Made by a program: the position numbers and the translations under genes. A stretch of 64,000 nucleotides of DNA from a virus (taxonomy: Duplodnaviria; Caudoviricetes), in the IMG/VR virus record IMGVR_UViG_3300032213_000911, positions 2,042 through 66,041 of that record. One strand, written 5' to 3'. Of the stretch, positions 9,027 to 52,820 are shown piece by piece. Within the stretch, counting starts at the first letter, position 1. Each line of letters starts with the position of its first letter. The notes under the pieces are model-generated. The model was not told the DNA's origin. It searched no databases and worked only from the letters and a program-made list of their open reading frames with translations.

Positions 9027-9075
9027 ACCCCCGGCTCCCTTAATTGGGAGTCGGGTGGTTTATTTTTTCTTTTTT
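9027..9075 (+). terminator. T-phi-like intrinsic terminator after the capsid gene
   Basis: CCCGGCTCCC-TTAATT-GGGAGTCGGG stem followed by a T-rich tract. Confidence 0.85.
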
Positions 9076-9088
9076 ATAAGGAGGCTAT

Positions 9089-30280: not shown

Positions 30281-33200
30281 ATGTACAATCCATATAATAA
30301 AGATACTAACTATAATTACTCAACTAAATACGGAGCACCACTCTATGGTAATATTGATCCAGATGTTTGGTATACCGCAACACAACCAGTAAATTTCTTT
30401 AGATCTTTCTTTTCAAATACACCTTTTGGTGTTGGAGATTCTGAAAAGGCAAGAGAAGGAGTACTACCATCAGTAACGCTAGAGGATATGAATAAGCTAG
30501 CAAACTGGTCCTTTACTCCACCAACACAAAATGATATGGATACTTACATGAGATTGTCTTATCTTTCACAAGGAGGATATAGCGGTCTAATTGGTAGAGA
30601 TGTCGATCAAACCGCAAAATACAGAGCCACGCTAGGCTTTGGTGCAAACCCATATGTAGATATTGCAAAACCATTACTAGAAAACTTACCACCATCTGAG
30701 GTTCAAAAGCAAAATCAAAATAATCCTTGGTATGATTATTTCCTATCACAAAACCCAGAAATTGGTATTGATCCAGAAACAAAAGAAAAATACTTTGTAG
30801 ATAAAAATGGAAATAGGATAAAAGAATTTTCTCCTAATTCAAATCCAGCTATTAAATTAGATGGTGATTATATATCTAATAAAGACCCAAGATGGCAAGA
30901 ATTAAGTAAAGCCAATGTTCAAGACGGTACTTGGTATAGACTACAAAAATCACTACAAGCAGAAGGTTCATTACCAAGCTTACTATTGGCTGGAGTAGCA
31001 TACGCAACTAAAGAAAAAGCAAATACAGCTTTTGGTGTTGCTATGCCCGGAAGTTTAGATCAAATGACAAAGGAACTTCTTGGTGAAGTAAGCCTAGCAT
31101 CTTATGATAGTATGTTAAATCCATTTAATAGTGCTGGTATTGACGATGATATTAAAAAATATTTAGAACCAACAGCAGAAGAAAAAATTAATGGGTTTAA
31201 TTCAAATAAGTGGTGGACTGAAAATATTAACCCAGAAGTAATACCATTCTTAGCACAAAAAGGAATTACACCAGATTCTATTGCTCCAGCAAAAGGAGCC
31301 AGAGAAGCCCTTGCAAAGGTTCAATTTGCATTATCAGAATCAACTATTCAACAAAGAATGGGTAGATACAATGTTGAAAATCCTTGGAAGTCTGGTATTA
31401 TTGCAACACTTGGTTATACTTTACCAACAGCTTTAATTAATGATCCAGATCTTGCTTTAACATTGGGATTATCTGTTGCAACATTAGGTGCTGGAACTCT
31501 TGTTAGGGGTGGTATAAAGGGATTAGAACTAACCGCAAGTTCTGCTAAAGCTGCTGCTAGAATTGAAAAAATATTACAAACAGCTAAACAATCTAAATTA
31601 GTCTCAGCAGCACAGGGACTTTACCAAATATCTATGGGTGATCTTCCTTTATGGTTTAAAAACTATAGTTATTTACAAAAGGTTGGAATTGGTGCTGGTA
31701 TTGCTGGTGCAGTAAATGCTGGTGCTTCAGTTAGAGATCATTTAAATAGAGTTTCTTTTGCTACAACTGGTTTATATAATAATAATCAAGATGAAGATAT
31801 GTTATCAGAAATAACATCTTCTTTTATTGCTGGTGCTGTATTCGGTGGTGTTCTTGGTTCTCTCGGTCATCTAGCTCATCCAGATATTGGTGGAAATAAA
31901 TATACAGCTAGACCAGACCTTAAAACAAACGCTCTTCGTTTAATTAACGATGCTAATGGAACAGAAAAATCATTACTAAACGAAACACCACAACAAAGAG
32001 CAGCACTTAATGAAGGCATCTCAGCTAGTCGTGAAGAAATGACTGTTAGAGCAGAAAACAGACCACCAGATATTTTAGAACCAACTAAAGAAAATGTACA
32101 GCCAAACTCTGTTGAAGTAATTGATCAAAGAGGTAATAGAATTAGGGTACAAGAAGAAGACATTACTTCTATTTCAGAAGTATCTGAAAAGATTCTTAGT
32201 GGTGAATATAAAGTAGTAAGAGATCAAAGAAATAAAACAGATGTTGCAATTCGTAGTGAACTAAACCCAATAACTGAAAAACCAAAGATTGTTTCAGAAG
32301 AAGTTCCACTAAATGCAGCAGAAAAACATGTTGTAGATTCTGAAAAGTTTGCTGATGCTGCAGACACAGCTAGAAGAGCTTCTGCTGGTACTTTGGCAGA
32401 AGCTACTGATTCTACAGCACTAGATAGAACAGCCGGGGAAAGCGATATTAGCTTTGCTACAAGACTAATTAGAGCTAATCACATTCGTAATCTATCTGAT
32501 CTATTTAAGATTACCCAAGATAAATCAAGCTCACAAAAATCAATAGTGGGAAAACTTGTACAATTTAAAAAACAAACTGAATCTATTAAAACAACTTTAA
32601 ATGAAGTTCTTGAAAAAAAATTAGTCAACTTTATTAAAGAAGAAGAAGTTAGAATATTACTTCAAAAACTAGATAAGTTTGTTGAAGACGATCTTGATAT
32701 TAGATTATCAAAAGCATTAGATACTGGTACTGGGGCTTTTAATAAACTAACTCCAGAAAAGCGTTCTAGTATGATTTTCTTTATTCAGGATCATGCTGGT
32801 AAAACTGACGATGAAATTAAAAAGTTAATAAACGAAAGTTCTTTTGATTCTAATGAAAAACGAATGTTAAAAAATCGTTTGTTAGAAAAGAAACCAAGAG
32901 CACAAAGAAAAAAACTTATTGATGAAATTCTTGCTGATAATAGTATTAGTGATAAGTCAAGAAAGATTTTAAATACATTACTAGGTACTCCAGAAAACTT
33001 AACTCTTACACAAAGAAAACTTGCTTCTGGTGCATATAGAAAAGAAAAGTATTTCTTTAAAAAAGCTTCTTATTTAACAGGAGAGTTTTATTTAGATTTT
33101 AAAGGTGTGCTGGACAAAACATTAGATACTTTAACATTGGGAAATAAAACAGCAGCAAAAGCAAATGCAGATTTAATTACTGGTTTAGTTAGAAGTGCTT

Positions 33201-36200
33201 TAGTAAATTTAAGATTACCAGAAAGAGCAGGTCTTAATAGAATTGAACTATCTATTGGAAATCTAAAAGAAGGTGTACTTGGTAATAATAAACTAGTAAC
33301 AAAAGCAGATGGTACTACTGTTCTACAAATTACTTTAGACGGTAAAACACTAGCAAAAGCTTTAGAGACAGGTGATAATGCTCTTATTGCTCATACTGTT
33401 TTACATGAATTAGGACATGCTTATTCTTATTTTGCAACACCACAAGATGTTTTAAAAATACTTACAATGTATAGTGAGTTCCTAGATCCAGAAGTTTTAG
33501 AAGCTTTTATTAATATTACAGAAGCAACTAGGGGTGGATTAGCAGATAGTGTTGGCCTCTATGCAGCGATTAATCCCGGAGAAGTATTTGCAAATCACTT
33601 TGCTAATCAAGGATTAGTAACTGGTTTAGACTCAGCAGCAAAATTAAGACTATCGTTCCTAGAAGCTTTTAGTACTTATATTGAAAGCATTATTGATGGT
33701 ATTGCCGATGTATTTACTTTTGATAATACAACCAAACTTAAACTCAAGAGAATTAGTAAAGTATTAAACGAAGTAATTGAAAACATCTCTCAAACATCTA
33801 ATGTTAATACAGTAACTTTAATTGATTTTGTAAAGCAAGAAAGAGATTTTACAAACTCTTTAGTAAAATCATCTTTATATACTTCAGATAAAAAACAGTA
33901 TCAAAAAAATATTATTGATGAGATTAAAAAAATTATTAGTACTATTGAACCAAAAGCAGCTAACAAATTTAATAGTGAAATTTTAAACTGGTTAAATGGT
34001 ATTGAAGTATATGGCAAGATAAGTATAAAAATGTTAGAACCACTTATTGATTTAGATTTTAATAATCAATTAAAAATACCATTAAAAGCTTTAACAGAAA
34101 AATATGGTACTATTATTAAATTCCCAGAAAATATGAGTAATCTAGCTAAACTTGAAATGCTATTAAACCCAGAAAATACACTAGCAGTTCAATTACAACA
34201 TGAGTTAAACTTTGTAACACAATATGATGCTATTAAAAATATTGTTAAAACAGCTGAGTTAACATCAACAAGAATAGGACTAGAGCGTTATTTAATTACA
34301 AATAAACTAGACGCTCTACCATCAATCCAAGCACTCAATGATTTTGCAAAGACAGAAGGAAAATATATTTCATCTGGTCTTAATAGATACTTAAGTACAT
34401 TTATATTTGGATTAGAAAATATTAATGAAAATATTATTAGATTAGAAGAACTAAACTCAAAAGCAAAAAATAAATCTATTCTTAGACAAAATGTATTTAA
34501 TCTAAAAAATGGATCAAGTTTTAATAATAAGATTATTTTTAGACCTAGTTTTGATACTGGCTTAGATGATACTAGTTTGGTATTATATCATGGTGGAACA
34601 TGGACTGGAGCAAAAGCACCTAATATGTTACATTCAGGTACTTTACAAGCAGCTATTGATCGTGCTGGTACTAATTTAACTCCAACATCTGATACAAATA
34701 TTGTTGCATTTACAGTTTCAAAAGAAGCAAATATTATTGAAATGGTTGATACTGGCACTAATCATATGAGTTTTGAAGATTACTGGAAAGCAATTAGTTA
34801 TGCTTATAGATCTAAACCAGATCAAACTTTAGGTGATATTCTTAGAACTATTATAGTAGATAAGAAAAAAGCAAATGAAATAATAACATCTCTTGAACAA
34901 GGTTATAAAGAAACTCAAACTGAAATCAAAGTTTTTGAAACACCAAATGATTTAAAAGAAATTCTTAAACAAGCTGGTGTAGATATAATTAAATATAAAA
35001 ATGTTGGTGAAGATATTGGATCAACTTCTTTTATTATTGTAAATCCAAATAGTATTAGTGTTAAAGCAAATGGTAAATTTGATAATGGTTTTGTTTGGAC
35101 TTGGAGATCTAGATCAACAGGTAAAATACTTGATAATCTTACTCAAGATTTACATGATATTAATTATCGTGGTTCTGATAGTTTACAAACTATTATTAAA
35201 GTATTGCCAGATCTAAGTGGAATTATGGCTGATGCTTCAGAAGCAATTAGTATTCAAAAAGAAGTTGAATTTAAACCAACAACTATTACTGAAGTAACAG
35301 CAGAAACTAAACCACTATTAGAACAAGAACTAAACAATCTATTAATAAAAGTCGAAGGATTAAAACCATCTTTCTTTAAAAGATTAACTGGTGTTGTTAA
35401 AGCTACCACATCTTTGGTTATTTCACCAGAAGATGCTAAATCAACACTTACAGATGTTTGGTTTGCTAGCAAGGCACAATTAGATAAAAACGAAGTTCCT
35501 TTAATTCTTAAAGCAAAATCAGAAACTGAAATATTTAGAATAGTTGCTGGTTTTAAAAAGAATATTTCACTTAAAGAATTAGAAGCAAGAGCTAAGAGTG
35601 GTAAAGTTAGTGGAATAGATTCAGCTGAAAATGTAGATGTTATTGCTGGATTAGCTAATAGAAATAATGAAACTATTGATGATGCTGCTACTGATCTTGA
35701 TGCATTAAGAAAGCGTCTTAGTGATTTCTCTAACTTCCTTAATAACAATAGACCAGTTTTTAGTGGTAATGTAGTTAATGAGATTCAAGAACTAATGAAA
35801 ATTCGTTTAGAATATAGTAAACTAACAAAAGGATTTAAAGCCGGAAAAACACCAAAGCTTCCAGCTGGAGCTGCATTAGAATTATATTTTAGAAGATTTC
35901 CTGAAGAACGAAGAGTTTATGATAACGCTTTAAAAGAAATCCCAAAGCATCCATTATTTAATAAAGCTATAGAAATAATTGCTGATGTTTTAAATGATAA
36001 AAATCCACAAATATTTAATGCATTATTACAAAGAAGATTGGGTATTAGTGAAAAAGAAGCTATAGCTATTAAAGAACAGTTAATACAAACTGGTGTAATA
36101 GAAAAACAACCAATTACATTTGCTCACAATATTTTAGTAACAAAAGAACAGTTAAAAAAATATATTGAATTAACAGCTATACCTTCTAAAGAAAATAAAG

Positions 36201-39200
36201 AAAAAGTATTAGAAATAAAAAAGAAAGCTACATCTTTACTAACAAGAATTCAAAAACAAGAAAAATTTGCTCTTGAAGAATTTAATGACATGGTTCAATC
36301 CGAAAGACCGATTCAATCTGAAAAAGTATTACATGATGCTATTTTAGAAAAAGTTTCTAAGTCAGAAGATAAAGCTATTGATACTCAACAAACAAAAGTA
36401 GAAAACCAAGTTAAGGATCAAGCACAACTTAAAGAAAACAAAGCAGCTCTAACATCAAAAGAAGAAACACCAGAAATTGCTGCTCCAGTTATTAAAGGTA
36501 TTGGAAATAAAGAATCCTTTATCTCTAGTGATTGGGACGGTGATCCAAATAAACTAGAACTAGGTCTTATCTTTACAAACGAAAAAAGAGCTGCTAATGT
36601 AAAGAAAAAACAAAGTTCAAAGTATACTGTAAGAGTAGAACTTGATAAGAGTAAAGTATTTAAAGTTGTTTCAGCTGGTACTTCTGCTTATCAAGCAATT
36701 AAAAATCTACCAGAACCAATTCTAAGAATAGCTGGTATTAATAAATCTATTATGGAAAGAGTTCTTGGTGCAGTTACAAAAGAACATTCTGAACAAGAAG
36801 CATTCAGAGTTATTCTTAATAAACTAAATGAAGAAGGATATACTGCTGTAGAGTTTATTGATTTAAAGGGAAATCTTATTGGTCATTCTCCAACTTCTAA
36901 AGATAATGTAAAAGTAGTTGAAACATTAAACCACGAAGAAACTAAAAAAGTTGGTTATACTAAGTTAGATGCTGCTAGAAAAAAGAAAATTACTGAACCA
37001 AAACCAACAGCTAAACCAGAACCAGAATCAATTAGAGTAGAACCAGAAGCACCAATTGATCCAGTTGATACAGTAGTTCCAGTTTCAAAGACTGGTGAAC
37101 CAGATGTAGAAACAGCACCAATTACTAAAGGTGAGTCTGATATTCCAGTTATTTCTGAGGAAGAAAAGTTTGTGCATGAAGTTTTAAATGCTAGTGAAAC
37201 TTTAAGATGGAATGGAACTACACCAAAGATTATTCGATTAGCTCTTGTTAAGTTTATGTCAGCAGCTAAAGAACTAAGAGAAAATATTGGAGTTGACTTA
37301 AAGGGTATTCCAGAAGAATTTAAAGGATTGCTATATAAAGTTGTTCGTGTTGCTGAAGAAATTGCAGAAGAAAACCGAACAAGATTTGGCGATCTTTATG
37401 AAAATATTAATAATGAATTCTGGACTATATTCGATAGAGAAGTAGCTAAAGAAATTCTACACCGTAGTAAACCAGATGGCGAACTATCTGTAAGAACTAT
37501 TGGAGATATTATTGATTTTGCTCATCAAAAAATTAATGAAAATATTATTATTAAGAATAAACGAGATGGTACTAGTTTACCAGAATTCTTAAGACCAATT
37601 AGCCCAGATGAATTTGAATTTACAAGTTCAAAACTAACTAATAAAATGCCTGATGATGTGAAGTTTAAAAAAGGTTCTCTTGCTAGTTCTATGGATAAAA
37701 GAATTGAAAAGAGAATTGAAGATGCTGCTAAAGCACCAGAAGAAAAAGCACCAGTAACTAAAGAACTAGAAGAAGATGAAGTTGCTGATGCAGTTCTCGG
37801 AGCAATTAATAGTAATCCAAAAGATAATACCATGTTATTAAGAGAGTCTAATTGGATTAGTGCTGTATTTGGCGGTAGTCAAAGAGATGGAAGAAACTGG
37901 TGGCGTAAGTTAATGAACGGTCTTGTAAATGTTATTGAAGTAAGAGCACAAACTGCCTATACTGCAAGATCTCTTTCAAACATTGTAAGAACTATTTCTG
38001 CATTTGCTGATAACTCAAAAGCACACATCCATAATCTAGTTGGTGGTGGAAAGAATGCTATTAAGAGTTGGGAACAATGTAGCCATGAAACTTGGCGTAT
38101 GCTAAGTGGTATTCGTAACTCTGCCACAACACTAGCTCAATCATTAGGTAATGAAAGAATTTATAGTTTAATTAGTGTTGAAATTATGAAAAGCTTTGCC
38201 ACTAAAACACCACTAGATAGAGCAAAACTTGAAGCAGTTATTCGTACAGTAATTCCAACACCATCTGTTGAATATCTAAATACTAACATACTAAATATCA
38301 CTAGTCTACATAATGCTGTAGCAGAAGTAAATAAAACACTATTAGATTTAGAAACAGAAACTGGCTTTATTAAAAAGGGAATTAGTTTAGTAGATAAAGA
38401 CGGTAATGCAGTTAAGCCAACTGAATACTACCCAATTACTTTTGTTGGTGAACTAGTTACTAGAGAAAATCAAGATGCTGTTATTAAGGAAATGGTACGG
38501 GTTCGTACTGCAACTTTAAATGCTTCTGATAAACTAGATAATACAGTTATGTTATCTATGGGATGGTTCTATAATAAAGAAGGTTATGTATTAGATCGTG
38601 GTCGTAGTTTAGAAGGCAGACAACAGTTCTTCTTAAACGAAGCAGACTTTGATGCTCAAACTTTAATTAATCTAGAAGAAAGAAGATATCCACCCGGAAC
38701 CGATCCAAAAACAATGATTGAATTCCGTGGTGAAGCTAGCAATAGACATTTTACATATAAAGATCCAACAACAAAAGAATTGGTTGTTTGTAGACTACCA
38801 AGAGAAAAAACAGACCTATCAGCTGTTGACTTAGTTAAATACAATGAAACAGTAATGGGCAGTAATGCACATGTTGGTAAGCAATGGAAAGCAAACTTTA
38901 CTGGTAAGATGTCTGTTCTTGAAGTAATGATGCAAGATTTATTAGACTCTAAACTTTATCGTGGAAAGTATAGTAAAGATCTTGCTACAAGAAAAGGCAA
39001 TGCAACTACACCAATGCTTGCACTAACAGATAATGCAAGACTAGAACACGGCTCTGTAATTCCAACTTTAACTTGGGAAGAAATATTAGCTAGTGATACT
39101 ATTACAAAAATTATGCGACATGAGCCACTAGAAGCTTATTCAAACTTTGTTGTTAGTAGAGGATTTGAACTCTTAGTACAAAAAGAAATTGATAGACTTA

Positions 39201-41023
39201 CTGGAACTAAGGGTGTACGGATGGGTAATTTTATGCGTATTCTTTACAATAAAGCAAGGGAAGAAGCATATGCTTTAGGTGGAGAAAAGAGAGCTTCTGA
39301 AATTGATGCTGGGTTTGATAGACTATCTAATGATTATTTAGCTTATCAAAATAGATTGTCAATGATTCAAACAAGAGGAGAACGGTTAGCTACTGAATCT
39401 ACCGAAATCGGTCTTGGTCTTGTTAGAGCACTTAGCGGAACATTGTGGGGTATTACTGGTAGTGCTGAACCATTACAGCATCTAATCATGTCTCCATTTA
39501 CAGTAGGTCCAATGCAAACTATTAAGAATATTTGGGAAACAGTTAGAATCCTTATTGGAGATAAACGGTTCTCAACTAGTGCAGCATTAAAAGATGAAAT
39601 GATGGAAAGCATATTCTTTATGGATCTTGTAAGAGCAGATACTCAAGATAGATTACTTAATCTTGATGGAGATGGAGTACCAAGAATTAGTCGCTGGTTT
39701 GATCGTCTAAAAGCTAGAAGAGAAGATTCTTCTACTTTAGGTAAAGGTGTAGATATATTTGCTAATACAATGGTTGAAATTGGTTCTTCAAGATACACTA
39801 CATTCCTTGCACGAAAACTAGCAATGCAAAGATTCAGTACACGGTTTGCTAAGTTTATTAATAATGGAGCAGCTGAAAGATTCTTTACAAAGTTATCAGA
39901 TCCAATTGTTCAATCAAGAATGAGAGCATTAGAAGAAGCCGCAGCTACTGATATAAAAGCAGCCAAAGAATTAGACAAGATGTTTAAAGAAATAAGCAGA
40001 CAGTCCGGCTTTGGTGGTCGTTGGGATGTAGCTATGGCTATGAATAAATACGGCATTAATACTGTTGAGCGTATTACAGCACTAAAAAAAATGTTTGATA
40101 AGCTAGGCCCACAATATTCAAAGTCTGGTTTAATTAATTGGAAAGAGCTTAGAACAGTTGTTGATGAGCTAAAGAAAACACCAATCATTAGAGATCTTAA
40201 TTATGATGTTGCCAGAGATGCTTATGAGTCATTTATCTTTGCTACAGAAAGCATGGTAACAACTGAAGGTGCTATCTCTGCTAGTCGTGGTTTAAATAGA
40301 GATCTTAGAATTGAAGGTAGAACACCATCAGGTAGATTGTTTAAATCTCTACTTGGTTGGTCACAGAGTTTCTATAATAATGTTCTAGGAAATCACGGTG
40401 GTATTAAATCATCTGCCTTAATAGGTAGTATGGTTCTATATACAGGTTTAACCGCAATATCTGAATACATGAAAGAATGGATTAGAGGTAGGGATTGGGA
40501 AGACATCAAGGAAGAAATGACTAAAGATCCAGAAACATTTATCTATAGAATGATGATGAACCTTCCAGCATTGGGCGGTCTATCTGGTAATCTTCAGTAT
40601 GTCTTAGCTAAAACCAGCGAAGCAACTGGTGGTCCACTAAAAGCATTTAGAACCCCAATGATGGCTCCTGCTTATGCTATGGCTATGCAACAACCATTCA
40701 AGATGGCTAACTCTTTATATAATTTAGTTACTAATTCAATACCATCTGGAGATATTCCTGCAACTATGTCAGATCTTGGTAGTGTAACTATGATTAATAA
40801 TTTATTCAATAACTCACCAGTAGCAGTTCCAGCTAGACTCCTAGTAGAAAATAAGTTTATTACCGAAGGTGATGCTTTGGGTAAATATATGAAGTTAATT
40901 AATAAAACAAAGAATACCTATAAAAAGGGTTCTAAGTACAATGGTCCTAGCTTTGTTCAAGATGACGAAACAATGAAAAGACTAGTGGCCGAAATCATTA
41001 GAAGACAGTCTCAACCCAAATAA
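30281..41023 (+). CDS. giant (3580 aa) internal virion/ejection protein, polyvalent
   Basis: Uninterrupted ORF, last structural gene; HELGH zincin motif, YHGG ART-like domain, FtsK-gamma-like helix set, hydrophobic segments near both ends. Confidence 0.85.
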   Translation: MYNPYNKDTNYNYSTKYGAPLYGNIDPDVWYTATQPVNFFRSFFSNTPFGVGDSEKAREGVLPSVTLEDMNKLANWSFTPPTQNDMDTYMRLSYLSQGGYSGLIGRDVDQTAKYRATLGFGANPYVDIAKPLLENLPPSEVQKQNQNNPWYDYFLSQNPEIGIDPETKEKYFVDKNGNRIKEFSPNSNPAIKLDGDYISNKDPRWQELSKANVQDGTWYRLQKSLQAEGSLPSLLLAGVAYATKEKANTAFGVAMPGSLDQMTKELLGEVSLASYDSMLNPFNSAGIDDDIKKYLEPTAEEKINGFNSNKWWTENINPEVIPFLAQKGITPDSIAPAKGAREALAKVQFALSESTIQQRMGRYNVENPWKSGIIATLGYTLPTALINDPDLALTLGLSVATLGAGTLVRGGIKGLELTASSAKAAARIEKILQTAKQSKLVSAAQGLYQISMGDLPLWFKNYSYLQKVGIGAGIAGAVNAGASVRDHLNRVSFATTGLYNNNQDEDMLSEITSSFIAGAVFGGVLGSLGHLAHPDIGGNKYTARPDLKTNALRLINDANGTEKSLLNETPQQRAALNEGISASREEMTVRAENRPPDILEPTKENVQPNSVEVIDQRGNRIRVQEEDITSISEVSEKILSGEYKVVRDQRNKTDVAIRSELNPITEKPKIVSEEVPLNAAEKHVVDSEKFADAADTARRASAGTLAEATDSTALDRTAGESDISFATRLIRANHIRNLSDLFKITQDKSSSQKSIVGKLVQFKKQTESIKTTLNEVLEKKLVNFIKEEEVRILLQKLDKFVEDDLDIRLSKALDTGTGAFNKLTPEKRSSMIFFIQDHAGKTDDEIKKLINESSFDSNEKRMLKNRLLEKKPRAQRKKLIDEILADNSISDKSRKILNTLLGTPENLTLTQRKLASGAYRKEKYFFKKASYLTGEFYLDFKGVLDKTLDTLTLGNKTAAKANADLITGLVRSALVNLRLPERAGLNRIELSIGNLKEGVLGNNKLVTKADGTTVLQITLDGKTLAKALETGDNALIAHTVLHELGHAYSYFATPQDVLKILTMYSEFLDPEVLEAFINITEATRGGLADSVGLYAAINPGEVFANHFANQGLVTGLDSAAKLRLSFLEAFSTYIESIIDGIADVFTFDNTTKLKLKRISKVLNEVIENISQTSNVNTVTLIDFVKQERDFTNSLVKSSLYTSDKKQYQKNIIDEIKKIISTIEPKAANKFNSEILNWLNGIEVYGKISIKMLEPLIDLDFNNQLKIPLKALTEKYGTIIKFPENMSNLAKLEMLLNPENTLAVQLQHELNFVTQYDAIKNIVKTAELTSTRIGLERYLITNKLDALPSIQALNDFAKTEGKYISSGLNRYLSTFIFGLENINENIIRLEELNSKAKNKSILRQNVFNLKNGSSFNNKIIFRPSFDTGLDDTSLVLYHGGTWTGAKAPNMLHSGTLQAAIDRAGTNLTPTSDTNIVAFTVSKEANIIEMVDTGTNHMSFEDYWKAISYAYRSKPDQTLGDILRTIIVDKKKANEIITSLEQGYKETQTEIKVFETPNDLKEILKQAGVDIIKYKNVGEDIGSTSFIIVNPNSISVKANGKFDNGFVWTWRSRSTGKILDNLTQDLHDINYRGSDSLQTIIKVLPDLSGIMADASEAISIQKEVEFKPTTITEVTAETKPLLEQELNNLLIKVEGLKPSFFKRLTGVVKATTSLVISPEDAKSTLTDVWFASKAQLDKNEVPLILKAKSETEIFRIVAGFKKNISLKELEARAKSGKVSGIDSAENVDVIAGLANRNNETIDDAATDLDALRKRLSDFSNFLNNNRPVFSGNVVNEIQELMKIRLEYSKLTKGFKAGKTPKLPAGAALELYFRRFPEERRVYDNALKEIPKHPLFNKAIEIIADVLNDKNPQIFNALLQRRLGISEKEAIAIKEQLIQTGVIEKQPITFAHNILVTKEQLKKYIELTAIPSKENKEKVLEIKKKATSLLTRIQKQEKFALEEFNDMVQSERPIQSEKVLHDAILEKVSKSEDKAIDTQQTKVENQVKDQAQLKENKAALTSKEETPEIAAPVIKGIGNKESFISSDWDGDPNKLELGLIFTNEKRAANVKKKQSSKYTVRVELDKSKVFKVVSAGTSAYQAIKNLPEPILRIAGINKSIMERVLGAVTKEHSEQEAFRVILNKLNEEGYTAVEFIDLKGNLIGHSPTSKDNVKVVETLNHEETKKVGYTKLDAARKKKITEPKPTAKPEPESIRVEPEAPIDPVDTVVPVSKTGEPDVETAPITKGESDIPVISEEEKFVHEVLNASETLRWNGTTPKIIRLALVKFMSAAKELRENIGVDLKGIPEEFKGLLYKVVRVAEEIAEENRTRFGDLYENINNEFWTIFDREVAKEILHRSKPDGELSVRTIGDIIDFAHQKINENIIIKNKRDGTSLPEFLRPISPDEFEFTSSKLTNKMPDDVKFKKGSLASSMDKRIEKRIEDAAKAPEEKAPVTKELEEDEVADAVLGAINSNPKDNTMLLRESNWISAVFGGSQRDGRNWWRKLMNGLVNVIEVRAQTAYTARSLSNIVRTISAFADNSKAHIHNLVGGGKNAIKSWEQCSHETWRMLSGIRNSATTLAQSLGNERIYSLISVEIMKSFATKTPLDRAKLEAVIRTVIPTPSVEYLNTNILNITSLHNAVAEVNKTLLDLETETGFIKKGISLVDKDGNAVKPTEYYPITFVGELVTRENQDAVIKEMVRVRTATLNASDKLDNTVMLSMGWFYNKEGYVLDRGRSLEGRQQFFLNEADFDAQTLINLEERRYPPGTDPKTMIEFRGEASNRHFTYKDPTTKELVVCRLPREKTDLSAVDLVKYNETVMGSNAHVGKQWKANFTGKMSVLEVMMQDLLDSKLYRGKYSKDLATRKGNATTPMLALTDNARLEHGSVIPTLTWEEILASDTITKIMRHEPLEAYSNFVVSRGFELLVQKEIDRLTGTKGVRMGNFMRILYNKAREEAYALGGEKRASEIDAGFDRLSNDYLAYQNRLSMIQTRGERLATESTEIGLGLVRALSGTLWGITGSAEPLQHLIMSPFTVGPMQTIKNIWETVRILIGDKRFSTSAALKDEMMESIFFMDLVRADTQDRLLNLDGDGVPRISRWFDRLKARREDSSTLGKGVDIFANTMVEIGSSRYTTFLARKLAMQRFSTRFAKFINNGAAERFFTKLSDPIVQSRMRALEEAAATDIKAAKELDKMFKEISRQSGFGGRWDVAMAMNKYGINTVERITALKKMFDKLGPQYSKSGLINWKELRTVVDELKKTPIIRDLNYDVARDAYESFIFATESMVTTEGAISASRGLNRDLRIEGRTPSGRLFKSLLGWSQSFYNNVLGNHGGIKSSALIGSMVLYTGLTAISEYMKEWIRGRDWEDIKEEMTKDPETFIYRMMMNLPALGGLSGNLQYVLAKTSEATGGPLKAFRTPMMAPAYAMAMQQPFKMANSLYNLVTNSIPSGDIPATMSDLGSVTMINNLFNNSPVAVPARLLVENKFITEGDALGKYMKLINKTKNTYKKGSKYNGPSFVQDDETMKRLVAEIIRRQSQPK

Positions 41024-41046
41024 ACCAATAGTTGGAGCTATAGATA

Positions 41047-41086
41047 TTTCCCATAGGGGTATTCTTAGGAATACTCCTATGGGAAA
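41047..41086 (+). repeat. long inverted repeat at the right end of the genome
   Basis: TTTCCCATAGGGGTATTC-TTAG-GAATACTCCTATGGGAAA (18-bp stem, one G-T). Confidence 0.8.
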
Positions 41087-41253
41087 CCTATAGATTAAAT
41101 AATTTTTGTATTTATTACTTAGTTCCCTGTCGGGATCGTAGGGGACTCCTCGGTAATCAATACAAAATAACACTACACAGATCCCGGTCGATTTCGATAT
41201 AAATTGAATAATACAATCCCCTGCGGTAGCCCCAGATACCTGTGGGGGTATAT

Positions 41254-41326
41254 TCTCCTATAGCTCAGTCGGTAGAGCAGAGAGCTGTTAACTCTCGGGT
41301 CGTTGGTTCAAGTCCATCTGGGAGAG
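41254..41326 (+). tRNA. tRNA-Asn(GTT)
   Basis: Cloverleaf: TCTCCTA/TGGGAGA acceptor, GAGAG-CTGTTAA-CTCTC anticodon arm, TTCAAGT T loop; CCA not encoded. Confidence 0.9.
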
Positions 41327-41339
41327 TTTGGAAAATCGG

Positions 41340-41412
41340 CTTAGGGGTCAAAAATTTATAAAGTGATATCCCCCTCTGTAGCCTCCCCCCTAACCCCCCG
41401 TACCCCCCGTCC
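41340..41412. other. probable physical genome end / terminal-repeat junction
   Basis: C-run cluster and abrupt switch from AT-rich late genes to GC-rich early-type sequence. Confidence 0.45.
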
Positions 41413-41559
41413 GATAAACCAACGCCCGGTAACTAGGGATGCCCCTAGCCGGTTATCGGCCCACATTCGGCAAGGGCATCGGGATCGGCAGGCATCCCGT
41501 ACTACTAGTGTCCTCGCCGCAGCGTGCGGCAGGCAACGCAAGTTCTCGAAAGGATTCCA

Positions 41560-41844
41560 ATGGGTACTATCCTGCGTGGGTTGGTCAGCGAGTGTCTGTC
41601 GAACTTCTCCGAAGATAAGTTGGTCGCGGTTCTTCGGGAGGCGCATCATGTGCTCGGGGATGGTCGCAAGGTGCACGGGTTGTTCTGCGACATGTGGAAG
41701 GTGTTGTTCCCGAATGGCACGCTGGATGATCGCAAGGCCATGTACGCTCGGGTTCTCACGATGGCTAATCTGCCGTCCAAGAACTACGGTAAGGCCGTCA
41801 CGAAGGCCGATGTGTTCTCCCGGCTGGATGCGCTCGGAGTGTGA
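41560..41844 (+). CDS. first early gene, hypothetical (GC-rich codons)
   Basis: AAAGGA RBS before ATG 41560. Confidence 0.65.
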   Translation: MGTILRGLVSECLSNFSEDKLVAVLREAHHVLGDGRKVHGLFCDMWKVLFPNGTLDDRKAMYARVLTMANLPSKNYGKAVTKADVFSRLDALGV

Positions 41845-41847
41845 CAC

Positions 41848-41915
41848 GGATTCCCCCGCGTTGTTCGCGGGGATTCCCTAGGCGATACCCTGCGGGGTAT
41901 CTCTAGGGGATTCCC
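41848..41915. repeat. two GC hairpins flanked by three GGATTCCC copies
   Basis: CCCCGCG/CGCGGGG and CCCTAG-GATACCC/GGGTATC-CTAGGG inverted repeats. Confidence 0.6.
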
Positions 41916-41965
41916 TCGGATGTTCCGATGGATGATGCCCTGCTCTTTTCTAGGAGGATTGTTCC

Positions 41966-42238
41966 ATGAATCTGCTCGACGAAATTCGCAAGGGTTGTTC
42001 GGTGGTGCGTCATGCCCAGATTGTGCTGGCCATCTGGAAGATGGATGGCGAGGCTACCATCACGGAAGTTCTGGAGTATGTCCGTGCGAGAACTGGGAAG
42101 TCTATCGACCGGGAAGACTTGGAGCGTGTTGTTCGCTTCATTCCCTCCTCCAGTTCCCGCAAGGTTCCCGGCGTGAAGTCTGCGCCGGATACCACGCCCA
42201 TGATGCCCCGTTGGGATCGTCCGAAGGTTTCAATCTAA
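41966..42238 (+). CDS. early hypothetical protein, possibly winged-helix
   Basis: AGGAGG RBS; IVLAIWKMDGEATITEVLEYV pattern. Confidence 0.65.
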   Translation: MNLLDEIRKGCSVVRHAQIVLAIWKMDGEATITEVLEYVRARTGKSIDREDLERVVRFIPSSSSRKVPGVKSAPDTTPMMPRWDRPKVSI

Positions 42239-42256
42239 CCCGAAAGGATTCTTCAA

Positions 42257-42511
42257 ATGAAGACCGAATCAACTTTCACTATCGGCATTACTTTGGCGGA
42301 TATTGATGCCTGCGGAGTTATGGAACAATGCGGGAACATTTCCAAGAGAATCGCAGAGATTCAGGAAATGATCGAAATAATCCGTCAGGCTAGCCGCAAG
42401 GGATATCCCGATATTGTTCGGGATCATGCCAACAGGATTATCCCTCGGATTTATAACATCTATCTTCGGGCACAAGTTGCCATGATGGATGCCGAGAAAC
42501 TTGCCAAGTAA
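42257..42511 (+). CDS. early hypothetical protein
   Basis: AAAGGA RBS. Confidence 0.65.
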   Translation: MKTESTFTIGITLADIDACGVMEQCGNISKRIAEIQEMIEIIRQASRKGYPDIVRDHANRIIPRIYNIYLRAQVAMMDAEKLAK

Positions 42512-42609
42512 ATGTCAAACAATCCGCCCCGGTTATCGGGCGCGGGTTGTTGATAGCGAAGCGTTGATAGCGAAATGGTTGGCGAGATGGTTTCTGTAGT
42601 TTTGATTGT

Positions 42610-43160
42610 GGTATTTATTGGTGGATAACCGATAGGTATCTTTCAGGCAGGATTGTGGAAGCGAATCGTAACGAGTGAATCGCTATGAGTTGTATGGGGT
42701 TGTTCACAAAGAACTCAACCATGCAAGTACCGTGAGAATCCACTCACTAAATACGAAGACACCACAGAATCTTCCCTTATGGTATCCCTAGGTGAAATAT
42801 CCTATGGATATCTTTCCCGAAACTGTAGGAATAACCCGCCATTGCAGTAGTTCGGAGAAAACAAGGGTGTATATTTATGGGATTAGCATTCATCTCATAA
42901 ATGAAATAGTGCGAATGTTTTCAGATAGGCTAACCATGTAACCTATCGGTGTTGGCATGGTGGTATCCATAGGTGAAATATCCTATGGATATCTTTCAGT
43001 TGAATAGTTACTATCTCTGCAACAAGTAGCACCCTCTTTGTGTGCCTTGGGATTGTAGAAGTAACTAGGGTTTGTGGTGAACCTTGTAATGTTGGGTCTT
43101 GTGTAAGGACTCTAACTATTCCTTATGGAATAACTGTAGACATAAACCACACTCTCTAAT
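42610..43160 (+). ncRNA. putative structured non-coding segments punctuated by hairpin+TTTC elements
   Basis: No ORF of 60 aa or more; many nested stems with G-U pairs; repeated hairpins at 42610, 42781 and 42962. Confidence 0.5.
42780..42997 (+). repeat. 37-nt direct repeat pair (42780-42816, 42961-42997), each a hairpin
   Basis: TGGTATCC(C/A)TAGGTGAAATATCCTATGGATATCTTTC, one mismatch. Confidence 0.9.
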
Positions 43161-43186
43161 CCGGCTATGCCGGGAAAGGTTTGCAC

Positions 43187-43384
43187 ATGATTCAGCATTC
43201 GTCAAACTTCCGAGACAGAACTAACCGTTGTATTGTTTCTCTTCAGGAAGGTTTTCGTGATCGACTGAAGGAATCTTTGCCACTCCATAAGCATGGATTA
43301 GTTGATTCAATGTTTGAATCCCTGAATCTTTATGCTCAGGAAGTTGAGAGTCTTCAGCAACAGATTGATAGGATTTCAGCATGA
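43187..43384 (+). CDS. early hypothetical protein
   Basis: GAAAGG RBS; stop overlaps next start. Confidence 0.55.
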   Translation: MIQHSSNFRDRTNRCIVSLQEGFRDRLKESLPLHKHGLVDSMFESLNLYAQEVESLQQQIDRISA

Positions 43385-43752
43385 ACATCTATAAGTTTGT
43401 TCAGAACAATAGCGGTGGATATTATGTTGGCCCTGCTGAGTTTGTTGTTCGTGCTGAATCTGTAGAAGGTGCTTGGGCTGAACTAAAGAAGCAAGAATGG
43501 TTTACTACAGATTTCTGTGAGTGTTGTGGTGAGCGTTGGTATAACCCCGAGGTTCTTGAACCAATAAAGGAAAACAGTATGAACTGGAATGACATTGCAG
43601 GTGTTAATCTGACTGATACTGAGTTGAAGGAACTTCGCTCTACTGTCAAGTCTTTGCAGGATACTGTTAAGGATTTGCGGGCAAGTCTTGAAATCGAGCA
43701 GATGTTGAATCGTGCTTTGATGAAGAAGGTTCAGAGGTTTGAGAATGTTTGA
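43381..43752 (+). CDS. early protein with QNNSGG...CECCGERW domain fused to a coiled coil
   Basis: QNNSGG and CxCCGxRW motifs; in-frame internal ATG 43579 with AAGGA RBS. Confidence 0.7.
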   Translation: MNIYKFVQNNSGGYYVGPAEFVVRAESVEGAWAELKKQEWFTTDFCECCGERWYNPEVLEPIKENSMNWNDIAGVNLTDTELKELRSTVKSLQDTVKDLRASLEIEQMLNRALMKKVQRFENV

Positions 43753-43834
43753 GCTTCTTGCCATTGCTTTGGTTGTTGTTACTTGTATTGTTATTACTTG
43801 TGTTGCATTGCACAATGTAAACAAACTTGGATAA
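43745..43834 (+). CDS. 29-aa membrane peptide
   Basis: MFELLAIALVVVTCIVITCVALHNVNKLG; GAGG upstream. Confidence 0.45.
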   Translation: MFELLAIALVVVTCIVITCVALHNVNKLG

Positions 43835-43846
43835 CTGATCTCTCCC

Positions 43847-44055
43847 GCATTCTCATGGTAGAAATATCATGGGAGTGTTTCAGGCATTTCGCGTGGTAGC
43901 CTCTTAGATAACCACATATGTTGTATAGCAACTACACCTATACAAAGGAGACACATGTAGGGTACTAGGTAAACGCGTAGTCCATAACCTAGGTAGGCAA
44001 GTGGTTCGCCACGGGATTCTCTTTCGGGAGAATCCCCTACGATGTACTTGTCTGT
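43847..44055 (+). ncRNA. putative multibranch structured RNA preceded by a hairpin+TTTCAGG element
   Basis: ACAT-GTAGGG/CCCTAC-G-ATGT closes three hairpins, two with TTCG loops. Confidence 0.5.
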
Positions 44056-44081
44056 TCTTTTCCATCTTATAGGAGAATCAA

Positions 44082-44351
44082 ATGAAGAATCGTGAAACTA
44101 CACTTTATGGGGAACAGTTTGAAACTGTTCTTATTTGTTTGCGAGATAGAATGGTTAGTATTGCAGAAGATATTAAGAAAGCACCATACCATTCAGATAA
44201 TGGTGAAGGTTGTCATGGTGATGATGATTGGCGTTATAACCTACACATGAGTACGCTCGTTTATAAAATGTCTCAAGTTAGTACATTGTATTATGAGATG
44301 GTTACTCAATGTGATTATGTTGACAATGATGGACAAACTAACAATGGATGA
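44082..44351 (+). CDS. early hypothetical protein
   Basis: AGGAG RBS. Confidence 0.65.
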   Translation: MKNRETTLYGEQFETVLICLRDRMVSIAEDIKKAPYHSDNGEGCHGDDDWRYNLHMSTLVYKMSQVSTLYYEMVTQCDYVDNDGQTNNG

Positions 44352-44579
44352 GTTTATTATTATCAGTTGGTACATAAAGGTTATTGTTCTTTGTGTACTG
44401 TCCCCCGTGATCTTGTTTCTTTATTACAAGGATAAGCGAAACTTAAATGGACAATGATTATTGGGCAGCTTATGCTGCTGTTGATTGTATTGTTGAATCA
44501 GACCTAATCGCTGAAGAAGATGATTATGTTGTGATTTCTATTCCTCGTTCTCTGTGGGATTCTTATCAGGAGTTGGCAA

Positions 44580-47144: not shown

Positions 47145-47166
47145 AAAGTTGGGGCTACTGATAGGG
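47145..47166 (+). promoter_or_regulatory. candidate phage RNAP promoter
   Basis: AAAGTTGGGGCTACTGATAGGG; near-identical intergenic copy at 54050. Confidence 0.6.
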
Positions 47167-48333: not shown

Positions 48334-48362
48334 TTGACAAGCGCAAGGAGATGTGATATAAT
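48334..48362 (+). promoter_or_regulatory. consensus sigma70 promoter
   Basis: TTGACA (48334-39), 17-nt spacer, TG-n-TATAAT (48357-62). Confidence 0.8.
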
Positions 48363-50324: not shown

Positions 50325-52820
50325 ATGCCTGAGTTATGGGATTTACTAAAGCCAGAAGTTCAGGAAAGTAGAAAAAACTATCAAGCAATGCTTGAAGAAG
50401 AAATGTTAAATCTTTCCAACAATAGATATTGGGAAGAGTATAACAGATCGCCTGACGAAGGATATCCTGAACAGGGTCTATTAGATAGTTGTGTTATTCA
50501 TCTCACTCCATTCTATCAAGAGTGGATTGATATGGTTTCAAAGAATCGTAAGACTCCTGATTGGGCATATCCTTTGTTTGCTGTTGGTGCTGGTAAGATG
50601 GCTGACATTACTATACGATGTCTAATGCTTGAGTGGTTTAACTCAAATACTTGGGATCGTAAGATGGATGGTAAGGATGGAGATATTCATAGCTTACCTT
50701 TACCATCTGCACAGCATATGGCACATCAGATTTCTAATATGGCTATTGATATTGTTTCATATCAAGCAGCTAAGAAAGATTTTAGAGATGATTGGTTAAA
50801 GCAGTCTCATTATCAAAAGAATTGGACCGTTAAGCGATGTCGTGCTTTTGCTGGTAAAATGAATTGCATTAACAAAAAGCAATTTACTAGAAAGCAACGC
50901 GAAGATTTTGGTCATCATATGCTTCGCATTGCTGAGATGAGTAATATCATCATCATCAGAAACTTTAGAAAGCGTATTGGTAATCGTTGGTATGAAAGAG
51001 TTGTTGTAAGTTTTACTGATGAACTTCTTCAGGAGCTTCATAATAGACACAAGGATTTGATCTCAAGAGCAAGTCTATTGTATCGTCCTATGATTGTTCC
51101 TCCTGCTGAACATACTGTTACTTCATCTGGTGGTAACTTAATGCCTTGGATTCGTAAGCCAGTTGTTCAGAAGTTTAGAGATGTTCATTGGGATGAGACT
51201 GTTGTTCAGAAAAACTCAACTCCAAGCGAAATGGTTGTTCGTGGTTTAAATGCATTGATGCATACTGAGTGGGCTATTAACTATAAAGTCTATGCAGTAA
51301 TGAATGCAATGTTCCACAACAATACAAGGGAGGCTAATCTTCCAGCGTATAACTTTGATGCTTTTGATTTTGGTGAGGCTTATCCTGAAACTGGAACAAA
51401 AGAAGAAAAGGCTAAGTGGTGTCAGCGTAAAGAAGAGTCTTGGTCTTCTTGGTATAAGGAAGAACGATCCCGTGGTCGTATGTTGGTAAGGCTTAAGGTT
51501 GCAAATGATTTGATGAAGTGGAATTTCTTTTATCACATTTATACATGTGACTTTAGAGGTCGTGCTTATACTGCTTGTGATTTATTGTCACCACAAAGTT
51601 CAGATTTTGATCGTAGTTTAATTCACTTTGCTAAACCAATAAAGCAAACTGAAAACGGTATATACTGGTTAAAGGTTCATCTTGCTAATTTGTTTGATCA
51701 AGATAAGTTACCATTTGCAGATCGTATTAAATGGGTTGATGATAATCTTGATCTTATTAAAGATACTGCAAAAGATCCATTTGAAACAAGATGGTTTTGG
51801 GTTAGTGACAAAAAGAAAAAGAACCCTAGTTTTCAAAGACTAGCTGCAATCTTTGAACTTTGTAGAACAGATGGATTAACTCAACTACCAATTCAAATTG
51901 ATGGTTCATGTAACGGTGTTCAACATTGGGCTGCTATTATGCGTGATGTTGATCTTGCTTATAAAGTAAATCTTACTGGACACAAAGATCCACAAGATTT
52001 ATATGGTTTTGTTGCTGATTCTATGACTAATTCAATGTCAAAGGATTCTAAAGATGAGAATGCAGACCCAGATACAAAGGATTGGGCACAGTTATTTTTA
52101 AATCATTGGGATAACAAAATCCCAAGATCAGTATGCAAGAGAGCTGTTATGACAGATCCATATGGTGTTACATTCTACGGTATTCGCAGATACTGTAAGA
52201 CTGAAGGTCATTTGGATTGGGTTAACAAGGATCGTATTGCTGGTGCAGTTATGGAACTGGCTACTTATATTGACAAGTGCTTAAAAAATACTTTAACTAA
52301 TGCAAATTATGGTAAGGTATGGCTAAAGCAAATTGCTGATATAGCAAGCAATATGGGTAAAAATCTTGAGTGGACTACTCCATGTGGTTTTAAGGTTGTC
52401 CATCAGTATTATGAAATTCTAACAAGGCGATCAATTGCAAAGTTGTTCAACATGAAGGAACTTCATTTTGGTTCTACAGATTCAAGTCAGATTGATGACA
52501 CTCAAGTTAACTTGGCAGTAAGTCCAAATTATATCCACAGTCTTGATGCAAGTCATATGTGGATGACTATGGATAAAATGCTTACGGCTGGTATTACTAA
52601 TTTTAGTTTTGTACATGATTCATATGGGTGTGCTGCTCCATATGTTCCATTAATGAGACAATACACAAGAGAAGAGTTTTATGCTATGCATAAAGAACCT
52701 TTACTTGAAAAACTAAAGTTAGAAGTTGAGAGTTCATTAGGAGTTGAACTTCCAAGTACACCTTTAATTGGATCTTTAAATATTTCTTCTGTTCTTGAAG
52801 CAGAGTATTTCTTTCACTAA
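50325..52820 (+). CDS. single-subunit T7-like DNA-directed RNA polymerase
   Basis: DFRGRAY, motif A DGSCNGVQH, motif B RSVCKRAVMTDPYG, PNYIHSLDASH, motif C VHDSYG. Confidence 0.97.
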   Translation: MPELWDLLKPEVQESRKNYQAMLEEEMLNLSNNRYWEEYNRSPDEGYPEQGLLDSCVIHLTPFYQEWIDMVSKNRKTPDWAYPLFAVGAGKMADITIRCLMLEWFNSNTWDRKMDGKDGDIHSLPLPSAQHMAHQISNMAIDIVSYQAAKKDFRDDWLKQSHYQKNWTVKRCRAFAGKMNCINKKQFTRKQREDFGHHMLRIAEMSNIIIIRNFRKRIGNRWYERVVVSFTDELLQELHNRHKDLISRASLLYRPMIVPPAEHTVTSSGGNLMPWIRKPVVQKFRDVHWDETVVQKNSTPSEMVVRGLNALMHTEWAINYKVYAVMNAMFHNNTREANLPAYNFDAFDFGEAYPETGTKEEKAKWCQRKEESWSSWYKEERSRGRMLVRLKVANDLMKWNFFYHIYTCDFRGRAYTACDLLSPQSSDFDRSLIHFAKPIKQTENGIYWLKVHLANLFDQDKLPFADRIKWVDDNLDLIKDTAKDPFETRWFWVSDKKKKNPSFQRLAAIFELCRTDGLTQLPIQIDGSCNGVQHWAAIMRDVDLAYKVNLTGHKDPQDLYGFVADSMTNSMSKDSKDENADPDTKDWAQLFLNHWDNKIPRSVCKRAVMTDPYGVTFYGIRRYCKTEGHLDWVNKDRIAGAVMELATYIDKCLKNTLTNANYGKVWLKQIADIASNMGKNLEWTTPCGFKVVHQYYEILTRRSIAKLFNMKELHFGSTDSSQIDDTQVNLAVSPNYIHSLDASHMWMTMDKMLTAGITNFSFVHDSYGCAAPYVPLMRQYTREEFYAMHKEPLLEKLKLEVESSLGVELPSTPLIGSLNISSVLEAEYFFH

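Follow-up and report, generated by a model that had tools for sequence, protein, structure and literature searches.

We analysed a 64,000-nt window (positions 2042–66041 of a 66,041-bp IMG/VR virus record with terminal repeats, IMGVR_UViG_3300032213_000911) from a new, uncultured freshwater T7-like podophage. Between a giant open reading frame (ORF) of 3580 amino acids (aa) and a region of small ORFs, the window carries an array of four hairpins, spaced 171–886 nt apart and each followed directly by TTTC. The hairpin is a + strand RNA structure that covaries among relatives, ends in an invariant UUU, and stands after stop codons or at module borders in a mosaic region; it may form the 3′ end of each cassette in that region. 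The array and its cassettes, in which hairpins are classed as type A or type B and relatives carry locus labels beginning with L, are as follows.

42512..42609, + strand: non-coding DNA leading up to hairpin 1; contains a G+C-rich hairpin (42525–42542); shared with L009, L035, and L011
42610..42644, + strand: hairpin copy 1, degenerate type A; 13-bp stem with 4 G.U pairs and a 5-nt loop, ending at 42640, then TTTC; 44.2 bits with the R1 model
42645..42780, + strand: segment A, 136 nt, structured non-coding; invariant closing helix AGGCAGGATTGTGG / CCACAGAATCTTCCCT around covarying inner helices
42781..42816, + strand: hairpin copy 2, type A; 12-bp stem ending at 42812, with one C.U mismatch and the 8-nt loop TGAAATAT, then TTTC; 66.5 bits with the R1 model
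42817..42961, + strand: segment B, 145 nt, non-coding; its first ~50 nt are the "B-head", ACTGTAGG...CCATTGCAGTA
42962..42997, + strand: hairpin copy 3, type A; perfect 12-bp stem ending at 42993, with 1 G.U pair and the 8-nt loop TGAAATAT, then TTTC; 68 bits with the R1 model
42998..43180, + strand: segment C, non-coding, from hairpin 3 to the ribosome-binding site that precedes the next ORF
43187..43834, + strand: coding cassette of three small overlapping ORFs (65 aa, 123 aa, and ~30 aa), closed by hairpin 4
43848..43881, + strand: hairpin copy 4, type B; 13-bp stem with 3 G.U pairs, ending at 43877, and a GAAA tetraloop, then TTTC; 14 nt past a stop codon
43882..44081, + strand: segment D, 200-nt structured non-coding leader; begins AGGCA, as does segment A

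An earlier model-generated account of this DNA (the sequence-only reading) had proposed four 12–14-bp hairpins followed by TTTC, two of them forming a 37-nt direct repeat and the other two held together by G-U wobbles. All four were located where it had placed them; the repeat (42780–42816 and 42961–42997) has 36 identical bases (97%), and the wobble pairs are those of copies 1 and 4 listed above. Folded as + strand RNA, copies 1–4 reached −14.3, −13.8, −18.7, and −17.8 kcal/mol and were all far more stable than shuffled sequences (z = −3.35, −2.77, −5.13, and −4.40). On the − strand, copies 1 and 4 folded no better than shuffles (z = −0.49 and −0.98, respectively). Scanning both strands of the window for a hairpin followed by TTTC yielded 11 matches, namely these four and seven scattered ones, each with a mismatch or at least 4 G.U pairs. 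The type-A covariance model recovered the three type-A copies only, together with one weak − strand match (E = 0.049). The arms of the copy at 42781 disagree at one position, and this copy looks chimeric, as a recombinant would be.

Relatives were collected by way of the phage RNA polymerase (14 IMG/VR loci, 84–99% identity) and of a conserved 221-aa protein (44 metagenome loci). Pattern scans of IMG/VR for further hairpin copies returned only contigs that the RNA polymerase had already retrieved. The relatives contain 34 strong matches to the hairpin model (E ≤ 2.8e-8), all on the + strand and all in the same region as the window array. With looser settings, 250 kb of metagenome loci yielded 30 + strand and 3 − strand matches. 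We aligned 26 distinct type-A copies, comprising 18 different stems. Pairing was found in 97.4% of the alignment cells, compared with 36–56% when the partner column was slid, and compensatory changes were present in 6 of the 12 pairs (30 cells). The covariation score was reached by none of 500 shuffles, showing that the hairpin stems covary. G.U pairs outnumbered A.C pairs by 41 to 3, and the same copies would be 85.3% paired if read from the − strand. The G.U excess and the strand asymmetry of pairing indicate that selection acts on the + strand RNA, and the RNA-level selection postulated from the window copies is thus borne out in the relatives.

Conservation within the element is uneven. 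The outer pairs of the type-A stem (GGTATC/GATATC) are conserved, including one G.U near the stem base retained in 21 of the 26 copies, and the inner stem is variable. Eighteen of the 26 have exactly the loop TGAAATAT, a GAAATAT apex is common to types A and B, and a type-B variant (CGTTCTC.../...GGGAATG) retains pairing. TTT abuts the stem in every one of the 26 copies, although their flanks differ and are unconserved on both sides. The next base is C in 19 copies, A in three, G in two, and T in two, and a tail-free scan detected additional copies ending in TTTA, TTTG, or TTTT. The TTTC(AG) tail proposed earlier is therefore correct in its TTT and too narrow beyond it: the constant features are a sense-strand hairpin and UUU, not UUUC(AG). 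L013, a more diverged relative, has three hairpins with unrelated 12–15-bp stems, each located after an ORF, with tetraloops GAAA (twice) and GGCT (once) and the tail (A/C)TTTC.

Two other identities for the hairpin were considered and rejected. The type-A sequence contains AGGTGA...ATG, resembling a ribosome-binding site and start codon, and the ATG is missing in many covarying copies (CATAG, ATTAG, ATCGG). In 185,579 species genomes, the degenerate type-A pattern had 0 matches and the type-B 19-mer had 3, which is the chance level, so that no host counterpart was found. The lack of type-A matches and the 171–886-nt spacing also oppose a repeat of a CRISPR (clustered regularly interspaced short palindromic repeats) array or a solitary repeat unit acting as an RNA anti-CRISPR. 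CRISPR spacers are ~30–40 nt long, and the repeat stems are shorter than 12 bp.

The hairpin starts 6–19 nt past a stop codon in eight relatives (L003, L004, L008, L009, L013, L014, L030, and L035) and at 43848 in the window; these cases are not independent, as several of the ORFs are homologous. The remaining elements delimit non-coding segments. Homologues of segments A, C, and D, and of a segment E described below, align over their full length, from the first base after UUU(C) to the last base before the next stem, and occur in differing neighbourhoods among the relatives. Segment A is preceded by hairpin 1 in the window and by a 73-nt B-head in L009, L003, and L014. In L008 and L011, segment C is reduced to its last ~27 nt (window 43154–43180), and the hairpin there abuts the stretch next to the ribosome-binding site of the following ORF. 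The hairpin ahead of segment D is of type A or of type B, depending on the genome. This module behaviour in mosaic contexts, together with the covariation of segments A and D, agrees with the earlier proposal that one shared element punctuates a series of distinct, structured, non-coding segments.

A second kind of intercistronic hairpin is present downstream. At 44368–44400, 17 nt past the stop codon of ORF 44082–44351, a 13-bp hairpin with 4 G.U pairs is conserved in six relatives and is followed by TCCCCCGT instead of U.

The segments lie in a stretch that is ORF-poor, as had been noted: all + strand ORFs within 42512–43186 are ≤49 aa. The 581 nt from 42600 to 43180 folded with z = −5.52 on the + strand and −4.03 on the − strand. 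Individually, the + strand z scores were −3.01 for A (42645–42780), −1.90 for B (42817–42961), −2.68 for C (42998–43160), and −2.59 for D (43882–44070); A and B gave −0.92 and −1.48 on the − strand. The stems named in the sequence-only reading, GATTGTGG/CCACAGAATC, CCGAA-ACTGTA/TGCAGT-TTCGG, and GTTACT/AGTAAC, all appear in the minimum-energy folds, and of these, the outer CCGAA/TTCGG pairing is not kept in relatives. Segment A folds within its closing helix as predicted, and a rod-like structure fits the relatives slightly better than the three hairpins originally drawn. Among five homologues (65–99% identity), the rod has 94.4% of cells paired and compensatory changes in 12 of 43 pairs, compared with 92.3% and 9 of 39 pairs for the three-hairpin fold, in which the third hairpin is 76% paired. 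Three of the five sequences adopt the rod when folded singly.

The structural support for segment B is weak, as 5 of 200 shuffles folded equally well and RNAalifold backed a single 5-pair helix in the B-heads of relatives. The B-head occurs in six relatives, and the complete segment B in L026 only. Homologues of segment C are near-identical, with few diverged. Segment D, with 11 homologues, has 99.5% of cells paired and compensatory changes in 5 of 36 pairs. The sequences behind these covariation counts are few (5–11 homologues) and related, and they also served to derive the structures, so that the counts lend support without being decisive. Gap lengths in the alignments of the segments are 1, 2, 4, 7, and 10 nt, and a coding reading of the segments was rejected because they are not multiples of three. 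In the Rfam comparison, only tRNAs reached the gathering score in the window, and no family matched within 42500–44200 at E up to 5. Judged from their sequences, the segments are RNA modules, not genes.

Two further segments were found in relatives. Segment E is a non-coding stretch of ~410 nt (412 nt in L009, 2017–2428) that is absent from the window and has homologues in L003, L008, L014, L026, and L030. Within it, a 25-nt block (ACTCGACTATGCGAGTATAAATAG) is invariant and two hairpins show strong covariation among relatives; segment E adds one more structured RNA cassette to the array. Segment F measures 94 nt and occurs in relatives only.

The long ORFs in the window are all on the + strand. 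The principal landmarks outside the array are listed below.

2459–4081, + strand: portal
6496, + strand: scaffold protein
7643, + strand: capsid protein
22889, + strand: large terminase
30281–41023, + strand: 3580-aa giant ORF
41030..41086, + strand: phage-promoter-like motif (TTGGAGCTATAGATA) and conserved 18-bp hairpin, immediately downstream of the 3580-aa ORF, where the region has its upstream border
50325–52820, + strand: T7-type single-subunit RNA polymerase, 831 aa (phrog_414, 1.9e-144)

The window also encodes tail tube proteins, fibres, and a 1320-aa protein that carries a lysozyme domain at its C-terminus. Between the giant ORF and the RNA polymerase gene lies a stretch of small ORFs with six tRNA genes, and the array stands between the giant ORF and this small-ORF region. 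The 123-aa ORF of the coding cassette matches phrog_21494 and phrog_4867, both of unknown function. Genes for a primase-helicase and a DNA polymerase, like that for the RNA polymerase, come after the small-ORF stretch. Compared with the polymerases of phages in the GenBank collection, the RNA polymerase never exceeds 30% identity, and its fullest-length match is LUZ100 (28%). A blastn search of 50,697 phage records for close cultured relatives gave the tRNA-Asn gene as the sole DNA-level match. DNA runs that contained 29% or more of the words sampled from the stretch were labelled as freshwater or lake; the habitat labels of runs with small shares were given no weight.

Two side observations concern the surrounding DNA. 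A G+C-rich island at 41200–42500 (54–58%, compared with ~37% in the surroundings) contains ORFs 41363–41881, 41966–42238, and 42257–42511, with no PHROG match. It is common only to L009, L011, and L035, the other relatives having different ORFs there, and looks like recently acquired foreign DNA. A 57-nt direct repeat (5228–5284 and 5842–5898, 84% identical) lies in the adjacent ORFs 5033–5689 and 5695–6243, suggesting that these are tandem paralogues.

The sole sigma-70 promoter in the window with 12/12 consensus positions, TTGACA-17-TATAAT with an upstream TG, is at 48334..48362 (+), flanked by the tRNA-Arg and tRNA-Leu genes; it lies 2 kb ahead of the RNA polymerase gene and 5.3 kb downstream of the hairpin region. 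It is likewise 12/12 in 7 of the 11 relatives scanned (L003, L004, L008, L009, L011, L014, and L030) and is probably the promoter on which host-dependent early transcription mainly relies. The + strand of 41000–44100 has no sigma-70-like site that reaches 9/12. A conserved TCGATT-18-TACAAT is present near 41186–41215, ahead of the tRNA-Asn gene. A sigma-70 promoter in or beside the hairpins was sought and not found, their unconserved flanks containing no promoter-like box, and a k-mer search of the intergenic regions gave nothing clear.

The + strand motif TTGGRGCTAnnRRTA occurs at 41032, 47149, 54054, and 59042, as well as at 23594 and, with one mismatch, at 47394 (6 matches versus 0.72 expected). 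AGTTGGGGCTAnTGATAGG, a longer form, recurs at 47147, 54052, and 59040 (3 matches versus 0.02 expected), and a weaker copy of it lies at 41030. We regard this motif as a candidate promoter of the phage's own RNA polymerase. The array hairpin was rejected for that role, since the candidate promoter motif is different from and unrelated to it. Transcription of the region may be due to the phage enzyme or to the host enzyme starting at weak promoters. Following the copy of the motif at 41032, directly after the giant ORF, an 18-bp near-perfect hairpin without a U tail (41047–41086) is conserved with compensatory changes in L003, L004, L008, and L014. Downstream of the major capsid gene, at ~9030–9080, a G+C-rich hairpin (CCCGGCTCCC...GGGAGTCGGG) and the long run of T after it make up a canonical terminator; T7 likewise has a terminator downstream of its major capsid gene.

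Expression was assessed in Logan assembled contigs from four riverine metatranscriptome runs, at a depth of 3–4; such contigs cannot show RNA ends. In three of the four runs, a contig covered 42645–42775/8 (segment A) without mismatch, its upstream part matching an L009-type B-head, and other contigs covered 43301–43488 and 43629–43844. The contigs end 5–13 nt before the hairpins and do not enter them. Given that DNA carry-over is possible, that the runs may belong to one campaign, and that the contig ends may be coverage gaps, these data hint only weakly at the presence of segment A in RNA; neither the contig ends nor the uncovered parts of the stretch were counted as evidence. The contig ends of the relatives do not coincide, and the terminal repeat of the record falls within genes; the supposition that the array lies in the first-entering DNA comes from gene order alone and is unproven.

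The 3580-aa protein had no PHROG, Pfam, or PDB match, the mini-vRNAP chains of the phage N4 virion RNA polymerase included. It has 11 metagenome homologues of 2333–3568 aa, and its lone DWDGD motif, at residue 2084, is found in only two of them. In the ESM Atlas, it comes closest to clusters of phage "polyvalent" proteins (ART-PolyVal, LPD38/39), a resemblance that is no more than a lead. The protein is probably an ejected multi-domain virion protein. A role as a virion RNA polymerase was rejected on the grounds that it has no database match and that DWDGD is unconserved; a very divergent enzyme is possible.

The reading that we favour, with a probability of about one half, is that the element closes each cassette at its 3′ end and is also a recombination joint. 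The signal would consist, in the + strand RNA, of a 12–14-bp hairpin, usually with a GAAA-type apical loop, and the UUU directly after it, marking the 3′ end of each expression cassette in the region. It would act as a weak factor-independent terminator or attenuator, and the hairpin would remain on the RNA and protect its 3′ end. The cassettes closed in this way would be either small ORFs or autonomous structured non-coding RNA modules (A–D, with E and F in relatives). Since a ~36-nt sequence recurs every 150–900 nt, it could serve as homology for the gain, loss, and reordering of cassettes among related phages. We infer termination or 3′-end formation, and hairpin recombination as the cause of the mosaicism, from these structural and positional features. 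A hairpin followed by a U-tract is the core architecture of an intrinsic terminator, whose U-tract is typically 6–8 nt, with the first 3 U being the most important; in the array, a stable sense-strand hairpin (−13.8 to −18.7 kcal/mol) is present and the U-tract is 3–4 nt.

Several observations weigh against this reading. The short U-tract and an A+U-rich stem base (G-C, G.U, U-A, A-U...) would make the elements poor terminators by E. coli rules, and a generic terminator scan (≥5 T in 8) passed copy 3 alone among the four window copies. As the canonical structure near 9030–9080 indicates, the phage can build a strong terminator and does not do so in the array. The conserved hairpins at 44368 and 41047, which have no U tail, indicate that 3′ hairpins without termination are also used. 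The conserved loop and outer stem of type A could represent a protein-binding site, or recent common descent of the copies. Finally, the assembled contigs are blind to 3′ ends.

The main rival is a processing signal, which would yield the same RNA ends as a terminator. A host or phage RNase would cut a long transcript in or after the UUU, releasing discrete small RNAs and separate mRNAs with protective 3′ hairpins. This corresponds to the principal proposal of the sequence-only reading minus its decoy part, and we consider it possible though unlikely. It would account for segments that are self-contained, their closing helices beginning right after the UUU(C) and stopping right before the next stem, and for the portability of the modules; tRNA genes in the same region imply transcript processing, and the RNA-library contigs span segment A, with or without the B-head, in three of four runs and stop short of the hairpins. 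However, no cleavage site is known or conserved past the UUU, where the next base varies, the contig ends are subject to the caveats of depth, carry-over, and campaign given above, and a position after stop codons suits termination equally. Cleavage by RNase III, as between cistrons of the T7 early transcript, had been offered as the conservative alternative. RNase III substrates comprise about two helical turns of double-stranded RNA, usually with an internal loop, and the T7 early RNA sites described by Dunn and Studier (R0.3, R0.5, R1, R1.1, R1.3) reportedly have ~20 bp in total and an internal loop. The array shares with them stable sense-strand hairpins that stand between cistrons of a T7-like phage, punctuate a multi-cistron transcript, and would leave 3′ hairpins on the upstream RNAs. 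In contrast, its stems are continuous over 12–14 bp, with no internal loop and, the flanks being different, no conserved lower stem; the invariant single-stranded UUU is not an RNase III feature; and the copies are confined to one 1.3-kb stretch. RNase III sites are therefore a poor fit and quite improbable.

The element might instead bind a phage or host protein, for instance a chaperone or a regulator of translation or antitermination, through its apical loop and outer stem. The loop shared by 18 of the 26 type-A copies, the outer pairs conserved with their G.U around a variable inner stem, and the apex shared with type B would all suit such a site. On the other hand, the L013 copies keep the same architecture with unrelated stems and, in one of three, a GGCT loop; conservation among close copies may reflect common descent or gene conversion; and no candidate protein was identified. 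We consider protein binding improbable. A purely DNA-level element (a palindromic recombination site, mobile palindrome, or replication or packaging signal) with no RNA role would explain why the hairpins lie exactly at mosaic junctions and why the copy at 42781 looks chimeric, with mismatched arms. This explanation is highly improbable, as the G.U excess and the 97.4% versus 85.3% pairing reveal selection on one strand, every copy is co-oriented with the genes, conservation of the UUU is one-sided, the few cassette ORFs scanned included no recombinase or transposase, and the species genomes hold no counterpart. N4-type hairpin promoters, recognized by a virion-injected RNA polymerase that would be the 3580-aa protein, are largely refuted and have a near-negligible likelihood. 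The giant ORF does end just upstream, at 41023, the N4 virion RNA polymerase is close to it in size, and 41000–44100 has no near-consensus + strand sigma-70 promoter. Nevertheless, the giant protein shows neither a match to the N4 chains nor a conserved DWDGD, and its Atlas neighbours, as a lead, are polyvalent proteins. N4 promoters have 5–7-bp stems and 3-nt loops on the template strand, whereas the array hairpins have 12–14-bp stems whose sequences vary freely, 4–8-nt loops, and sense-strand pairing with G.U.

A broader proposal is that the region is an exchangeable array of at least six unrelated structured small-RNA families (A–D, with E and F in relatives), each self-folding, released or ended at the hairpin-UUU, and shuffled like integron cassettes or those of the T4-type element discussed below. 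Acting in trans, these RNAs would target the host, whether by decoying its RNA-guided or RNA-sensing defences, for instance, or by helping to take the cell over. We regard this as speculative and rather unlikely.

By analogy, the closest known system is the promoter-early stem-loop (PeSL) of T4-type phages, described as a repeated promoter and stem-loop that terminates or attenuates transcription and is a recombination point for cassette shuffling (Arbiol et al. 2010, PMC2839356; Comeau et al. 2014, PMC4122927). As far as the cited account goes, the PeSL is a composite of ~100 bp, with a sigma-70 consensus early promoter, including an A+T-rich upstream part, and a polyG/polyC stem-loop (PMC2839356). 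Measured against these accounts, the array is similar in that a short, repeated intergenic stem-loop flanks small, often orphan cassettes in a plastic region, and relatives differ by insertion, deletion, and replacement exactly between the elements. Unlike the PeSL described there, only the hairpin and UUU are conserved here, the promoter half being missing from 41000–44100 at the 9/12 threshold; the stems are A+U-rich with G.U pairs, many cassettes are structured non-coding RNAs, and the phage is a T7-like podovirus. Without the promoter half, the element does not qualify as a PeSL; its action nevertheless appears to resemble that of the stem-loop part, with the same evolutionary effect.

Canonical Rho-independent terminators are also similar, with a hairpin followed by U, located downstream of stop codons and co-oriented with the genes. 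They differ in their U-tract (~6–8 nt, compared with 3–4 nt here) and in that the base of the array stems is weak and A+U-rich; 12–14 bp is at the upper end of their stem range. The terminators of phage phiKZ are reported to comprise a conserved hairpin and TTAT at mapped transcript 3′ ends, with short structured RNAs arising from 5′ untranslated regions by premature termination (Putzeys et al. 2024, PMC10914365). In that account, as here, one phage reuses a near-identical hairpin family with a very short T-rich tail. The phiKZ stems it describes, however, are G+C-rich (CCYCCCC/GGGRRGG), distributed genome-wide, and read by the phage's own multisubunit polymerases, while the present element is known from sequence.

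Regulatory punctuation in phages is known from a few models, namely the T7 RNase III sites, the T4 PeSLs, and the phiKZ terminators, and the present element is a compact, RNA-only version in an uncultured freshwater clade. Its cargo is unusual, consisting mostly of structured non-coding RNAs that are supported by covariation and have no Rfam match. If these RNAs are not made as discrete molecules, the array would still be a clean example of a short terminator-like repeat driving cassette exchange. If they are, the array would constitute a natural library of phage small RNAs with a portable 3′ module, and non-coding RNA genes, besides orphan ORFs, would belong to the shuffled accessory cargo of the phage. 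Should the reading as an exchangeable small-RNA array be true, the phage population would hold a variable repertoire of non-coding RNAs.

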